Of a DNA stretch of 64,000 bases, positions 3,449 through 55,529 are shown one piece after another (position 1 is the stretch's first letter; each line of letters opens with the position of its first letter). This stretch comes from an uncultured bacterium (GTDB taxonomy: Bacteria > Desulfobacterota_D > UBA1144 > Nemesobacterales > UBA2774). The notes under the pieces were generated by a model. That model saw nothing but the letters and a program-made list of their open reading frames with translations, was not told the DNA's origin and made no database searches. The stretch covers positions 352,001 to 416,000 of the forward strand of contig CAVPJU010000006.1 of NCBI GenBank assembly GCA_963705505.1, in the 5' to 3' direction. The position numbers and the translations under genes were made by a program.

Positions 3449-4605
<1,157 letters not shown>

Positions 4606-49497: not shown

Positions 49498-50445
49498 ATG
49501 CGTATATGTTCATTCCTTCCGAGCACGACCGAGATTCTGTACGCCCTCGGGTTGGGGGAGAGCGTGACGGGCGTGACGCACGAATGCGATTATCCTCCGG
49601 AGGCGCGGGAGAAAAAAAGGGTCATCATGAGCTTCATAGACCCTGAGAAACTTTCGAGCCGCGAAATAGACGAGCTTGTCAGCAGGAATGCCGCGGAAGG
49701 GAAGAGCACATACCTGATAGATAAAGACGCTCTCAAAGAAGCGGACCCCGACCTCATACTGACACAGGAGCTCTGCGAGGTATGCGCCGTATCCGGGAAC
49801 GAGGTAGCAGAAGCGACAAAAGTATTGGGCCATACCCCGGATATAATTTCTTTAGAGCCGAGGACGCTCGACGAGATACTGGAAACGATCAATATAATAG
49901 GCGAAGCGACGGGGACGAGCGACATAGCGCGTGAAGTCACGGAGAAGCTCAGGCACAGGATAGAGAAGATAAGGTCGCTCCTCCGGGACGAGAGGGACCG
50001 GCCGAGGGTCTTCTGCATGGAGTGGCTCGACCCGCCTTACGTCGCCGGGCACTGGGTGCCGGAAATGGTCGCGATCGCAGGGGGCGAATGCGGAATAGGA
50101 AAAGCAGGCGAGCCCTCTTTTAAGGTCTCGTGGAAAGACATAGCGGATTTCGCGCCGCAGATGCTCTTTATAATGCCGTGCGGCTATGATATAGAAAAAA
50201 CACTCGGCGAAATCAATACGGTTATGCAGCACGAGGAGTGGTTTTCGCTGCCGTCCACGGGCAAGGGCCAGATTTACATATTCGACGCTAACTCATATTT
50301 CAGCAGGCCGGGGCCGAGGGTCGTCGACGGGCTCGAGATATTCGCCAAGACCATCCACCCGGAGCTGATGAAAAGCTACGAACCTCCGCCCGACTCGGTA
50401 ATCAATCTGAGGAACTATATGCAGTTCGAATTATTCTTAGGATAG
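49498..50445 (+). CDS. BtuF-like cobalamin-binding protein without a signal peptide
   Basis: MRICSFLPSTTEILYALG..GVTHECDYP, EWLDPPY.AGHWVPEM and FSRPGPR. Confidence 0.8.
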   Translation: MRICSFLPSTTEILYALGLGESVTGVTHECDYPPEAREKKRVIMSFIDPEKLSSREIDELVSRNAAEGKSTYLIDKDALKEADPDLILTQELCEVCAVSGNEVAEATKVLGHTPDIISLEPRTLDEILETINIIGEATGTSDIAREVTEKLRHRIEKIRSLLRDERDRPRVFCMEWLDPPYVAGHWVPEMVAIAGGECGIGKAGEPSFKVSWKDIADFAPQMLFIMPCGYDIEKTLGEINTVMQHEEWFSLPSTGKGQIYIFDANSYFSRPGPRVVDGLEIFAKTIHPELMKSYEPPPDSVINLRNYMQFELFLG

Positions 50446-50448
50446 GAA

Positions 50449-51330
50449 ATGATAAAAAAATCCCTGCTAACAATTATAATCCTCGCAATCGTAACGGCAT
50501 CGTGCCTGAAAGCCGTTGCGGCAGACACACCCAAGCGTATAGTCTCGCTCTCTCCGAACCTGACCGATATGATCTATGCGCTCGGGGAGCTCGATAAGGT
50601 AGTGGGCGTAACGATTTATTCGGATTTCCCGCCCAGTGCGAAGACTCTGCCGAAGGTGGGAGGCTGGATCAATCCCAACTACGAAGCCATACTCGCGCTC
50701 AGGCCCGATCTCGTCGTTCTTATGAAGGACCAGGACACGATATTCGGCGAGAAAATAAGGAAGCTCGGGCTCAAAACTCTCGTTACGAACAGCAACGATT
50801 CCATAAACGATATATTGAAGACGATAACCAACATGGGGGAGGTATTGGGCAGAGAGACCGAGGCGAAGAGAATGGTCTCCGATATGGAAAAGAGACTCGA
50901 AGCTATAAGGGAGAGAACGGAAGGAGTGCCGAAGAAGAAGGTCCTTCTTGTTGTCGGAAGGAACCCGGGAACCCTTGAGGACATCTACGTGATCGGGCGG
51001 AATAACTACATTAACGAGCTGATCGAATTATCCGGAGGGGTAAACGCGGTCGAAAATACGAGGCTCTCGATAAAGATCACGAAAGAGGCTATACTGACAC
51101 TCGACCCGGACGTAATAATCGAAATAAACCACGAAAAGCTGAACAAGGAAGCCGAAATCCTCGGCACATGGAGCATTCTCCACGAGTCGAGGGCCGTAAG
51201 CAGCGGTCAGGTCTATATACTGCCGAGCACCGTGCTCCTTCATCCGAGCCAGAGGATCGTTGAGGGCGCGGAGGTTTTGACAGAACTACTTCACCCCGAA
51301 TTGAAGGACAAATATGGAAACAATAATTGA
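50449..51330 (+). CDS. btuF: Cobalamin ABC transporter substrate-binding protein
   Basis: Signal peptide; RIVSLSPNLTDMIYALG and PNYEAILALRPDLV. Confidence 0.82.
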   Translation: MIKKSLLTIIILAIVTASCLKAVAADTPKRIVSLSPNLTDMIYALGELDKVVGVTIYSDFPPSAKTLPKVGGWINPNYEAILALRPDLVVLMKDQDTIFGEKIRKLGLKTLVTNSNDSINDILKTITNMGEVLGRETEAKRMVSDMEKRLEAIRERTEGVPKKKVLLVVGRNPGTLEDIYVIGRNNYINELIELSGGVNAVENTRLSIKITKEAILTLDPDVIIEINHEKLNKEAEILGTWSILHESRAVSSGQVYILPSTVLLHPSQRIVEGAEVLTELLHPELKDKYGNNN

Positions 51331-52128: not shown

Positions 52129-53130
52129 ATGATTGCCAAAAAGAAATTTTTACTCGCGATAAGCCTCTTATTTTTGCTCTGGGTCTTTATAGCCTCGATA
52201 AGCGTGCTTTCGGGCACGTATGACGCGAACCCTTTTGAAGCCCTCTTTAAAGGGGATGAGCTCGCAAATACTATTTTTTATAAAATCAGGATACCGAGGG
52301 TGCTCATGGCGACGGTTGCGGGAGGGACGCTCGGCATGTGCGGCGCCGCGCTCCAGGCGCTCTTCAGGAACCCTCTGGCGTCTCCGTTCACGCTGGGCAT
52401 TTCGGGAGGCGCGTCTCTGGGGGCTCTCATAGGGATAAGGCTCGGCCTGGCAGCCGGTCTGCTGGGTTTTTCGATGGTCTCTATTCTGGCGTTTCTCTTT
52501 TCTCTCTTTACCATGATCTTCGTTTACAAGGTTTCGAAGGTGGGAGGGGTAGTGGCCACCGGACGTCTGCTCCTGGCGGGCGTGGTAATGAACTTCCTCT
52601 ATTCCGCCTTCGTGCTTTTTATCCAGTTCTTTTCCAACTTCACCGAGTCGCTTCAGACCATGCGCTGGATCATGGGGAGCCTCGATATCGTGGGCTTCGA
52701 TGAGGTCTGGAAAACACTCATATTCGTAGTACCGGGGTGCCTGATACTTCTCTCGTTAACTAAGGACATGAATTTATTCGGTCTGGGAGACGACGTCGCA
52801 TCGTCACTGGGAGTTAACGTAAAGAAAATGCAAAACCAGATCTACTTCGCAACGTCTCTATCGGCGGGAGCGGTAATATCGGTAACGGGGCCTATAGGAT
52901 TCGTCGGACTGATAATTCCGCATATCCTGAGAATGCTGCTCGGGGTCGATAACAGAATCATCCTCCCCTGTTCGTTCCTGCTGGGCGCTTCGTTCCTCAC
53001 GGCCGCCGATACGGTCTCGAGGACCCTCATATCGCCCGTCGAGATACCCGTGGGGATAATAACAGCTTCCGTGGGCGGACTATTCTTTCTCTGGCTGCTT
53101 ATGAAGACAAAGAAAGAAGTTATTGTTTAG
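52129..53130 (+). CDS. btuC: Cobalamin/iron-chelate ABC transporter permease (FecCD/BtuC family)
   Basis: IRIPR, FRNPLASP.TLGISGGA, GPIGFVGLIIPH and EIPVG. Confidence 0.85.
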   Translation: MIAKKKFLLAISLLFLLWVFIASISVLSGTYDANPFEALFKGDELANTIFYKIRIPRVLMATVAGGTLGMCGAALQALFRNPLASPFTLGISGGASLGALIGIRLGLAAGLLGFSMVSILAFLFSLFTMIFVYKVSKVGGVVATGRLLLAGVVMNFLYSAFVLFIQFFSNFTESLQTMRWIMGSLDIVGFDEVWKTLIFVVPGCLILLSLTKDMNLFGLGDDVASSLGVNVKKMQNQIYFATSLSAGAVISVTGPIGFVGLIIPHILRMLLGVDNRIILPCSFLLGASFLTAADTVSRTLISPVEIPVGIITASVGGLFFLWLLMKTKKEVIV

Positions 53131-53197
53131 CTGCCGGCCCGTCGCCGCAGAGCCGATCATCAAATTAAAACAGAGAAATAACCGTGCTCTTCTTAAA

Positions 53198-53428
53198 CTA
53201 CGTGCCGGGAGCCTTGAAAGGATCGACTTCCCCCGAGGGCCGAGAAGAAGACCCTCCCGCCTGGGACGCCGCGGCAGATTTAAAAGGATCGGCATCACCC
53301 GAAGGAGCGGGCGGCGGGGTCGGCGGTGGAGGAGGCGCTGCGCTTGCGGCTGCAGCTTGACTCCCCTGAGGCTGCATGAAACGCCATATAAAAAAGGCCA
53401 AACCTATAATAATCAATGTCCACATCAT
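53198..53428 (-). CDS. Small membrane-anchored Pro/Ala-rich protein (76 aa), long copy of the micro-peptide array
   Basis: GGAGG SD; MMWTLIIIGLAFFIWRFMQPQ followed by a PPPPPTPPP linker and two DPFK motifs. Confidence 0.6.
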   Translation of the reverse strand: MMWTLIIIGLAFFIWRFMQPQGSQAAAASAAPPPPPTPPPAPSGDADPFKSAAASQAGGSSSRPSGEVDPFKAPGT

Positions 53429-53510
53429 TTCTAAATTTCCTCCGTAACGAAATATTCAGTATCAATAAGCGATCATAAAACAAGCCGCCTCAGATTAATA
53501 CCCCCCCGCT

Positions 53511-53579
53511 TTATGACTGGGGCTGGATAAAACGCCATATAAAAAAGGCCAAACCTATAATAATCAATGTCCACATCAT
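53511..53579 (-). CDS. 22-aa hydrophobic micro-peptide, array copy 2
   Basis: AGAGG SD; MMWTLIIIGLAFFIWRFIQPQS* (TAA at 53511-53513). Confidence 0.55.
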   Translation of the reverse strand: MMWTLIIIGLAFFIWRFIQPQS

Positions 53580-53659
53580 TTCTAAATTTCCTCTGTAACG
53601 AAATATTCAGTATCAAAAGCGATCATAAAACAAGCCGCCTCAGTTTAATCCCCCCCGCT

Positions 53660-53728
53660 TTATGACTGGGGCTGCATAAAACGCCACATAAAGAATGCCA
53701 AACCTATAATAATCAGTGTCCACATCAT
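53660..53728 (-). CDS. 22-aa hydrophobic micro-peptide, array copy 3
   Basis: GGAGG SD; MMWTLIIIGLAFFMWRFMQPQS* (TAA at 53660-53662). Confidence 0.55.
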   Translation of the reverse strand: MMWTLIIIGLAFFMWRFMQPQS

Positions 53729-54019
53729 CTCTAAATTTCCTCCGTAGTAAAATATTCAGTATCAAAAGCGATCATAAAACAAGCCACCTTAGACGAATCC
53801 CCCCTTCTTTATGAATATTGTTTGAAATTCACCCCTAAATAATCAGCACCTACTACCTTGATACTAATAAATTTCATATGCCCGTGTCAAGATAAAAATT
53901 CGAAGACGCCGGATAAATGCCTCGTTTCCGGGAATTATAAGGATTTCTCACCCCGGCAGGGTCAGGTTTTGCTAAAAATCGCGCTTGTAATAGACTTAAC
54001 ATGCAAGACGGAGGGTATT

Positions 54020-54487
54020 TTGTTATCGATTCTTCTGAAACCTTTCCTGAATAAAAGGAAAAGGATTAACGATAACCCGGAACTGCATCCCGATACCGAG
54101 TTCTCACTATCGTTGATCGAATCGGGGTGCCTGTTTGCGCGTATGAACGATAAAACGGCCCTGATTATAAAAAGTACGGGCCAGGAAATCGATATAATGA
54201 AGGAATTTCAGGCGATTACCGTCGGTTTCGAGCTCATCGAAAGACCCGAGTTCCCTTCACTCTCATTCTCCCTGAATATAGATACAAAGAGAAAGCAAAC
54301 GTTCCGTTTCGAATATTTTTTCAATACAGAGTCCGAGGAAGAGATGAGCATCCTCGGGAAAATGTGCGGGGAAAAGCGATTCGACATACTTTTTTATAAC
54401 TCCTCCGTGGAGTTCATTATACGGACGGAGATTTCGGATGAACAAGCCTCCGAACTCGGATCGTTATTAAACCGGGCGGGAGTGTAG
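54020..54487 (+). CDS. Hypothetical protein
   Basis: Open frame; GGAGG at 54010 suggests the TTG at 54020 as start rather than 53858. Confidence 0.55.
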   Translation: MLSILLKPFLNKRKRINDNPELHPDTEFSLSLIESGCLFARMNDKTALIIKSTGQEIDIMKEFQAITVGFELIERPEFPSLSFSLNIDTKRKQTFRFEYFFNTESEEEMSILGKMCGEKRFDILFYNSSVEFIIRTEISDEQASELGSLLNRAGV

Positions 54488-54488
54488 T

Positions 54489-54518
54489 TTGACAAACATA
54501 CCTCTTCCCTGATACTAT
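54489..54518 (+). promoter_or_regulatory. Probable sigma70 promoter of fabH
   Basis: TTGACA(54489-54494) with GATACT or TACTAT 16-18 nt downstream. Confidence 0.5.
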
Positions 54519-54551
54519 TCCCGTCGAGTAACTTGAGGAGAAACCATAAAT

Positions 54552-55529
54552 TTGAGTTTTGTTAGGTTCTTAGGCACCGGTTCATCGGCTCCGCCGAAAA
54601 TAATGACCAACCTCGACCTCGAAAAACTGGTCGATACCTCGGACGAATGGATTCAAACCAGGACCGGGATACGGGAACGGAGAATAGCCGAGCCCGACGT
54701 CGCTACGTCCGATATCGCTTATGAAGCTTCGCTCAAAGCGCTGGAAAGCTCGGGAGTGGACGCCCGCGACCTCGACGGGATAATCGTCGGCACTGTAACC
54801 CCCGATTATATATTCCCATCGACCGCCTGTATCCTCCAAAGCCGCCTCGGCGCCAAAAAAGCATTCGCATTCGATGTCCTCGCAGGCTGTTCGGGATTTT
54901 TATATGCCCTACAGGCAGGAAAGGGAATAATAAGCGCAGGGGACGCAAAAAAACTTCTTATTATCGGGGCGGAGACCCTCTCTAAAATCACCGATTTCGA
55001 GGACAGGTCAACGTGTATCCTCTTCGGGGACGGGGCGGGCGCCGCCGTTTTGTCGGAATCGGAATCACCGGGGATACTCTCGACGTGCCTCGGGGCGAAC
55101 GGGGACGAATGGCAGCTTTTGTACATGCCCGGAGGAGGCTCGCGCATGCCGGCCAGCGAAGAGAGTATTAAGAACAAATGCCATTACCTGAAAATGGCGG
55201 GAAAGGAAGTTTTTAAAGAGGCGGTAAAAGCGCTCGAATCTTCTTCGCTGGAAGCAATAAGAAAGGCGGATATCACGCCCGAGGAAATAGACCTGTTCAT
55301 ACCCCATCAGGCGAACATCAGGATACTGGAAGCCGTGAGGAAGCGCATAGGGCTTCCGGAAGAGAAGGTATTCAGCAACCTCGACAGGTACGGTAACACT
55401 TCATCCGCATCGGTCCCTCTGGCTCTCGACGAAGCAGTCAGAAGCGGAAGGGTCAAGGAAGGGGATACGATACTCATTTCGGTGTTCGGAGCGGGGTTTA
55501 CATGGGGCGCCGCGGTCGTCAGGTGGTAA
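54552..55529 (+). CDS. fabH: 3-oxoacyl-ACP synthase III
   Basis: DTSDEWIQTRTGIRERR, AGCSGF, LFGDGAGA, PHQAN and YGNTSSAS. Confidence 0.95.
   Translation: MSFVRFLGTGSSAPPKIMTNLDLEKLVDTSDEWIQTRTGIRERRIAEPDVATSDIAYEASLKALESSGVDARDLDGIIVGTVTPDYIFPSTACILQSRLGAKKAFAFDVLAGCSGFLYALQAGKGIISAGDAKKLLIIGAETLSKITDFEDRSTCILFGDGAGAAVLSESESPGILSTCLGANGDEWQLLYMPGGGSRMPASEESIKNKCHYLKMAGKEVFKEAVKALESSSLEAIRKADITPEEIDLFIPHQANIRILEAVRKRIGLPEEKVFSNLDRYGNTSSASVPLALDEAVRSGRVKEGDTILISVFGAGFTWGAAVVRW

Follow-up and report, generated by a model that had tools for sequence, protein, structure and literature searches.

Front-end duplication of a gene for a predicted single-helix membrane protein yields helix-only micro-peptide genes in an uncultured bacterium

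A tandem array of small genes lies on the minus strand of a 64,000-nt stretch of DNA from an uncultured bacterium (contig CAVPJU010000006.1; the whole stretch is termed the window, and positions are counted from its first letter). Two of its three open reading frames (ORFs) encode peptides of 22 amino acids (aa), and the third a protein of 76 aa that starts with nearly the same sequence, a predicted transmembrane helix. The array goes back to an old, partial duplication in tandem that copied the front end of a single gene, that of the 76-aa protein, which we call the parent. The reading we favour, at a probability of roughly 0.45, is that the short peptides are co-transcribed anchor-only paralogues of the parent that act through its helix, as partners or competitors; they are probably forms of the full protein that lack its tail, and not toxins.

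Tandem Repeats Finder places the repeat at 53366-53814 (-), with a period of 149, 3.0 copies, 92% matches and a score of 747. Its units carry the two 22-aa ORFs and the start of the 76-aa ORF, with one Shine-Dalgarno site per ORF, each 10 nt from its ATG (Table 1). Alignment of the three units resolves the 149-bp unit into the final 86 nt of the 5′ leader and codons 1-21 of the 76-aa gene. Beyond codon 21 the long gene reads GGG AGT (Gly-Ser) while the short copies read TCA TAA (Ser-stop), with which the leader of the next unit begins; this leader sequence, TTCATAAAG, is also found upstream of unit 1. Because the short copies run into a next leader that is present upstream of unit 1 as well, the array is a head-to-tail duplication of leader plus 21 codons, and the Ser-stop of the short ORFs is a by-product of the duplication junction, CAG/TCATAA. 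In-frame read-through of the short-ORF stop reaches another stop four codons on. The original prediction, made from the sequence letters and an ORF list, had described three units of about 150 bp, each with a Shine-Dalgarno site and a minus-strand ORF; both the repeat finder and the unit alignment bear this out, and its ORF coordinates (53728-53660, 53579-53511 and 53428-53198) and translations match the ORF list.

Table 1. Features of the array, its promoter and its neighbour in the window, and the unlinked short copies of genus g6
Feature	Position	Strand	Basis or remark
155-aa soluble protein gene, TTG start, outside the repeat and divergent from the small gene	54020..54487	+	Conserved neighbour
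Sigma-70-like promoter (TTGACA, 18 nt, TAGTAT)	53861..53890	-	Consensus scan, 10/12 matches; upstream of whole array
Unit 1, leader part	53729..53814	-	Shine-Dalgarno GGAGG 53743-53739
Short ORF 1, 22 aa, MMWTLIIIGLAFFMWRFMQPQS, predicted transmembrane helix only	53660..53728	-	ORF list
Unit 2, leader part	53580..53659	-	Shine-Dalgarno AGAGG 53594-53590
Short ORF 2, 22 aa, MMWTLIIIGLAFFIWRFIQPQS, predicted transmembrane helix only	53511..53579	-	ORF list
Unit 3, leader part	53429..53510	-	Shine-Dalgarno GGAGG 53443-53439
Long ORF, 76 aa, parent gene: predicted helix at residues 2-18, Pro/Ala-rich acidic tail, two DPFK motifs	53198..53428	-	ORF list, alignment, AlphaFold
g6 23-aa copy, unlinked to long gene	L038:3977-4048 (G014), L044:1055-1126 (G021)	+	

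The three ORFs have just one strong promoter-like site, which lies outside the 149-bp unit, upstream of the whole array. Each unit offers on the minus strand only 9 of 12 promoter matches, from which a transcript would start inside the unit's own ORF, and a scan of the array found no terminator-like site between units. A metatranscriptome contig (X20, aligned to 53321-53525 with 5 differences and 3 gaps) links the final codons of a short ORF, across the leader, with the long ORF; since DNA can occur in RNA libraries, we take it as a weak hint of co-transcription. All loci read from family f1, the family of the window's genome, have upstream of the long gene a block that contains the promoter (cTTGACA, about 10 nt, AAATTTATTAGTATCAAGGTA). 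This block (53855-53895 (-) in the window), including its A/T-rich spacer, is nearly invariant across genera in which the leaders and neighbouring proteins have strongly diverged. Such conservation exceeds the need of the -35 and -10 hexamers, and the block may double as the binding site of a regulator.

Two further elements of this region were considered. A fourth ORF of 22 aa (MKFISIKVVGADYLGVNFKQYS, 53809-53877 (-)) ends, as the short copies do, in TCATAA. However, it starts from an ATG placed between the promoter's -35 and -10 hexamers and has no similarity to the helix; it is most likely a chance ORF. An inverted repeat joining the -10 region to the leader (53749-53765 and 53858-53874, 76% complementary) was dropped, as it is not conserved in single-copy relatives.

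Relatives of the 76-aa protein were found in 39 of the 61 genomes of the order (E <= 0.01), among them 31 of the 32 other f1 genomes, all six f8 genomes and one of six f7 genomes; the 76-aa query found none in the 16 genomes of f2-f6. Ten further loci were taken from families where the sequence search with this query had failed, and in three of them (f2, f5 and f6) a diverged ORF with a helix and an acidic tail ending D-P/A-F-K/R lies beside the neighbour gene. The search for related loci used an alignment of family-f1 members only as its query. A profile run against 1.84 billion cluster representatives gave 17 matches at E <= 0.001, one of which, P0019 (1557 aa), was rejected by eye as an unrelated repeat protein. 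A search among proteins of similar length gave 14 matches, all unnamed or 'hypothetical' and with no Pfam domain; searches among shorter proteins (covering 30-40 aa only) and longer ones gave no matches. When the three peptides were compared with Pfam, NCBIfam and PADLOC, nothing exceeded a family threshold (the best, NF042414, had E = 0.12 and 12.4 bits against a cutoff of 30), and the best ESM Atlas feature score, 0.81, was below the usable range. A literature search, including Dadabacteria small proteins and the DPFK motif, found nothing on this family. As far as these matches go, the family is confined to one uncultured lineage, given in the records of the relatives as Candidatus Dadabacteria or Thermodesulfobacteriota metagenome-assembled genomes.

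An alignment of 25 members shows a common plan: an N-terminal hydrophobic helix, an acidic Pro/Ala-rich stretch, an internal motif (D-P-F or S-E-F), and a C-terminal D-P-F-K/Q-A-P. The AlphaFold model of the parent has a single helix at residues 2-18 (predicted local distance difference test, pLDDT, 84-90), the remainder having no secondary structure (pLDDT 54-74), and by this model the parent is a single-pass membrane protein with a disordered acidic tail. Within f1, helix residues M2, W3, L5, I6, W15 and P20 are invariant, and T4, G9, L10 and F12 nearly so; this is more conservation than a mere anchor needs, which suggests a specific contact in the membrane. Several families have Lys or Arg after the helix and none has them before it. 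Under the positive-inside rule, by which the positively charged flank of a membrane helix faces the cytoplasm, this pattern would place the tail in the cytoplasm. The 76-aa ORF shows all four features of the family, namely the helix, the acidic Pro/Ala tail, a D-P-F-K/Q near the C-terminus and the divergent 155-aa gene, while the 22-aa ORFs show the helix only. One relative, P0026 (167 aa), combines a single helix with a long acidic tail that bears four DPFKSA-type motifs, so that the number of D-P-F-K/Q motifs per protein ranges from one to four in the family.

Helix-only copies were counted in 33 family-f1 genomes with a profile of the first 23 residues. Five genomes carry extra ones: the window's own genome (G000) has two, and G003, G006, G014 and G021 have one each; the other second matches to the profile were weak and lay inside long ORFs. 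The copies in G003 and G006, which belong with G000 to genus g1, are in tandem, end in QPQS-stop and have the junction seen in the window, and the G006 peptide is identical to that of short ORF 1. The remaining seven of the ten g1 genomes have a single copy of the gene and no short ORF. Scanning metagenomes for the exact junction pattern gave 0 matches; an N-terminal pattern gave 17 loci, of which 3 run off their contig and 14 have a complete long ORF, and one of these 14 (L084) has a tandem short copy, of 21 aa with its stop one codon earlier. The shared junction, and a Lys-16 common to the short copies of G003 and L084, suggest one old origin within g1. Gains and losses of short copies were to be ordered on a tree of the neighbour protein, but 8 of the 10 inner branches in that tree did not resolve.

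Genus g6 differs in that two of its three genomes, G014 and G021, carry a helix-only copy of 23 aa, MWTLIVIGLAFLGWYIIKPQEAE, which is unlinked to the long gene and lies upstream of ileS, with its own copy of the promoter, an AGGAGG Shine-Dalgarno site and a GC-rich hairpin right after its stop. Given tandem copies in g1 and an unlinked copy in g6, helix-only copies, as judged from these loci, arose at least twice. All seven short copies (four from g1 genomes, one from L084 and two from g6) retain the ATG, the Shine-Dalgarno site and an open frame. The original prediction had pointed to homologues and copy number in related genomes, and the parent is indeed widespread in its order and the number of short copies variable.

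The opposite half of the gene has been copied in one f8 genome, G045, where a tail-only ORF of 67 aa (L032:3553-3756 (-)) lies directly downstream of a full gene of 85 aa (3897-4154 (-)). The 67-aa ORF lacks the helix, bears three motifs (NPFQSA, DPFRSA and DPFQAP) and has an AGGAG site of its own, and the same 3′ flank follows both the full gene and this tandem duplicate. The tail-only copy, seen in this one genome only, is the mirror image of the helix-only copies and shows the modularity of the gene.

Comparison of the copies indicates what has been conserved. Seven positions vary within the 21 codons shared by the three window units; as the original prediction had listed, five are synonymous (CTG/TTG, GCA/GCC, TTC/TTT, TTT/TTC and CCC/CCT) and two exchange Met and Ile, which the unit alignment confirms. 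The synonymous share expected for random substitutions in these codons is 0.17-0.23, and five or more of seven has a probability of 0.002-0.009. Between short ORF 1 and the G006 short copy there are five synonymous differences and no non-synonymous one (P = 1.4e-4 to 6e-4), with leaders 72% identical. Short and long copies differ by four synonymous and no non-synonymous changes in G006, where the leaders are 59-69% identical, and by five and one in G000 (short ORF 1); pooled, 9 of 10 are synonymous (P about 1e-6 to 1e-5). In G014, short and long copies differ at seven synonymous and no non-synonymous sites over helix codons 1-16, with three non-synonymous changes just past the helix, in codons 17-20. 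The 23 codons of the two g6 short copies, G014 and G021, differ by four synonymous changes and no non-synonymous one, while their flanks diverge.

The helix codons are thus under purifying selection, and because their differences are almost all synonymous while the leaders diverge, the short peptides themselves appear to be kept by it. The unlinked g6 copy has seven synonymous changes and no others in codons 1-16, a pattern that gene conversion cannot explain. Selection on the peptide, which the original prediction had proposed, is therefore upheld by the mostly synonymous helix differences, with the evidence from the tandem copies weakened by gene conversion.

The favoured reading, of co-transcribed anchor-only paralogues, can be set out as a series of steps. 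Front-end duplication copied the end of the leader, with its ribosome-binding site, and codons 1-21, such that the extra units encode the helix only. One mRNA started at the single conserved upstream promoter would carry all three ORFs, and each would be translated from its own ribosome-binding site. The short peptides would insert into the membrane like the parent and would there occupy the parent's helix-helix contact, either with the parent itself or with a membrane partner of the parent. Having no motif-bearing tail, they would dilute or compete with the tail-bearing form, and so set the number of displayed tails. One of the two readings in the original prediction was that short peptides partner or titrate the long anchored protein; it is compatible with our data, which add to it the purifying selection on the helix and the at least two origins of anchor-only copies, while the partnering itself we infer.

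Several points weigh against this reading. The short copies are patchy, being present in 5/33 f1 genomes and 1/14 complete metagenome loci, so that any role of theirs is dispensable in most relatives. In L084 the short copy differs from the long one by four non-synonymous changes, all conservative, against five synonymous. In G003 the short and long copies are identical over their first 45 nt while their leaders are only 45-59% identical, from which it follows that gene conversion acts in tandem arrays; the three G000 leaders, for their part, are 83-91% alike, closer to one another than to any leader of G003 or G006. Part of the conservation of the tandem copies may therefore be borrowed from selection on the long copy. 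Finally, the 9/12 minus-strand matches in each unit, weak as they are, leave room for separate transcription of the downstream units.

A somewhat unlikely alternative, a bacterial counterpart of microProteins, makes the parent a membrane tether, whose cytoplasmic DPFK tail recruits a partner. Half-gene copies, helix-only in g1 and g6 and tail-only in f8, would then act as decoys that compete for one contact each and tune recruitment. The partner of the tail may in this case be the 155-aa protein, which is encoded divergently throughout the order; a predicted complex of this protein with the small protein scored 0.00 in a run made without controls, and so counts neither for nor against binding.

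It is unlikely that the short peptides are independent small membrane proteins that have a separate task, such as the modulation of another membrane complex, and only their ancestry in common with the long protein. The g6 copy, unlinked, with its own promoter and placed upstream of ileS, can be regulated separately and departs from the parent past the helix through the three changes in codons 17-20. As the accessible parts of two articles on such proteins describe, many bacterial small membrane proteins regulate larger complexes (PMC12648545, PMC8404706). Yet each short helix is identical or nearly so to that of the long copy in the same genome: in G003 both carry I8V and F13V, and in G014 they are identical over residues 1-16. 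A contact shared with the parent fits this matching better than a new target does, and the g1 copies would moreover share the promoter and mRNA of the long gene.

Improbable, too, is a purely cis-acting role, in which the short ORFs are upstream ORFs whose translation, with co-translational targeting of the mRNA to the membrane, tunes synthesis or insertion of the long protein, the peptide itself having no role. The g1 short ORFs do precede the long ORF with no terminator-like site between, and the RNA contig X20 joins a short-ORF end to the long ORF. However, the seven single-copy genomes of the genus do with no upstream ORF at all, the g6 copy is not upstream of a long gene yet shows the same selection, and no alternative-hairpin structure was found in the array, whose transcript folds worse than shuffled sequence (z = +1.66). 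A leader-peptide attenuator was rejected on this fold result and the scan for terminators between units.

We also doubt that the short ORFs are functionless remnants of the duplication, conserved only through gene conversion from the long gene. This would account for their patchy distribution, for the 45 nt of identity in G003 and for the mutual likeness of the G000 leaders. Against it, the differences that have accumulated between short and long copies in G000 (short ORF 1) and G006 are synonymous in nine of ten cases, all seven short copies have kept their translation signals and open frame, and the unlinked g6 copy has changed at seven synonymous sites in 16 helix codons with no change of amino acid, which conversion cannot explain.

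The other reading in the original prediction, a type I toxin-antitoxin-like family, fares much worse and we consider it very unlikely. The available portion of Fozo et al. 2010 (PMC2887945) names small hydrophobic peptides in tandem, in intergenic DNA, as a criterion by which type I toxins were searched for, and notes many false positives. With 22 aa and one predicted helix, the short peptides match the size (< about 70 aa) and transmembrane criteria. As described in the same portion of that source, they resemble the arrays of Ibs/Sib and Ldr/Rdl in that the peptides are very short and hydrophobic, have their own ribosome-binding sites, are encoded in intergenic tandem and are missed by gene callers. 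Unlike those arrays, this one has a single strong promoter-like site and units that lack it, the 9/12 matches within units starting inside the ORFs. No plus-strand (antisense) promoter-like site was found within 53198-53860 by a consensus scan, which could miss weak or atypical promoters, and no antisense RNA gene or structured mRNA was detected: neither the mRNA strand (z = -0.21 to +1.66) nor the plus strand (z = -0.04, +2.34 and -1.55 for the three units) folds better than shuffles, and Rfam, scanned with 52500-54600 up to an E of 10, returned chance-level rows only. The peptide is a truncated copy of the longer conserved gene that ends the same array, corresponding to the first 21 residues of a gene inherited vertically in 31 of the 32 other genomes of the family; the scans of Pfam, NCBIfam and PADLOC gave no match that passed a family threshold either.

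That the array is an assembly artefact has next to no probability, in keeping with the original prediction. The genome assembly is a 2.88-Mb draft in 10 contigs, short-read assemblers handle 149-bp repeats poorly, and no single outside contig covers the whole array. Yet the three units differ at unit-specific positions, and contigs of three other metagenome runs carry these positions while bridging a short-ORF end, the leader and the next ORF (X1, 53379-53559; X2, 53454-53633 and 53617-53982; X4, 53261-53529), none of them fitting in two places. Short ORF 2 is covered in full, with leader on both sides, by one such contig (X2 record 12), and the same layout of one short copy plus the long gene recurs in the species genomes G003 and G006 and in the metagenome contig L084. 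At its start, the leader of unit 3 has a run of G (53500-53501; a C run on the plus strand), outside the ORFs, whose length varies among contigs of other runs: X20 has three letters more and X4 one letter less.

The surroundings of the parent gene are conserved. It is always divergent from a gene for a protein of about 155 aa, followed by fabH and a Mem_trans gene; wherever the flank was long enough, in 29 loci, the 155-aa gene adjoins the small gene, and 58 of the 61 genomes of the order possess it. Its product belongs to no Pfam or NCBIfam family. An AlphaFold model (pLDDT 85.4; predicted template modelling score, pTM, 0.81) matched nothing in Foldseek at E <= 0.001, and the best scores of a wide structural search, Z = 5.0 for MRP1/MRP2 and 4.7 for Whirly PBF-2, are in the range of common arrangements. 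On its other side the array is convergent, as had been described, with a transporter operon, the last gene of which, for a FecCD-family permease, ends at 53130 after binding-protein and ATP-binding cassette (ABC) genes. The operon opens with two Peripla_BP_2 paralogues (49498-50445 (+) and 50449-51330 (+)). Judged by eye, the N-terminus of the first (MRICSFLPSTTEI...) does not resemble a signal peptide, and that of the second is hydrophobic and contains a Cys; the first paralogue is also found beside the small gene in f8 loci.

Small membrane regulators of the MgrB type are, to our knowledge, stand-alone genes with no longer parent. In the accessible parts of the articles on them they are single-helix peptides of < 50 aa thought to act by helix-helix contact (PMC8404706, PMC12648545), a description that would fit the short peptides; the two differ in that no sequence similarity was found by Pfam and NCBIfam scans, and in the presence here of a longer parent.

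A different parallel lies outside the bacteria. MicroProteins of plants and animals are truncated paralogues which, reduced to an interaction domain, act on the protein they derive from. The short copies have the corresponding origin, since they consist of the leader and codons 1-21 of the 76-aa gene, at 92% identity, and the same is seen in G003, G006 and L084. In both cases partial duplication gave birth to the copy, with one module kept (here the helix) and the effector part lost (here the DPFK tail). Unlike microProteins, the copies described here are bacterial, the module is a predicted transmembrane helix of about 17 residues, and the copies sit in what would be the operon of their parent. 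By this analogy the locus seems nearer in logic to microProteins than to type I toxin-antitoxin systems, conservation being the ground for seeing the helix as an interaction module.

Very small membrane peptides of bacteria mostly escape annotation, and their origins are seldom traceable; here the origin is a plain partial tandem duplication. The parent and its divergent neighbour form an undescribed gene pair, found throughout the order in an uncultured lineage, that combines a protein with a predicted helix and a DPF-bearing tail and a 155-aa protein whose fold has no clear match. The locus offers a natural setting in which to study how micro-peptides of a single helix originate and come to be of use, and whether truncated paralogues serve bacteria as built-in competitors of the parent.

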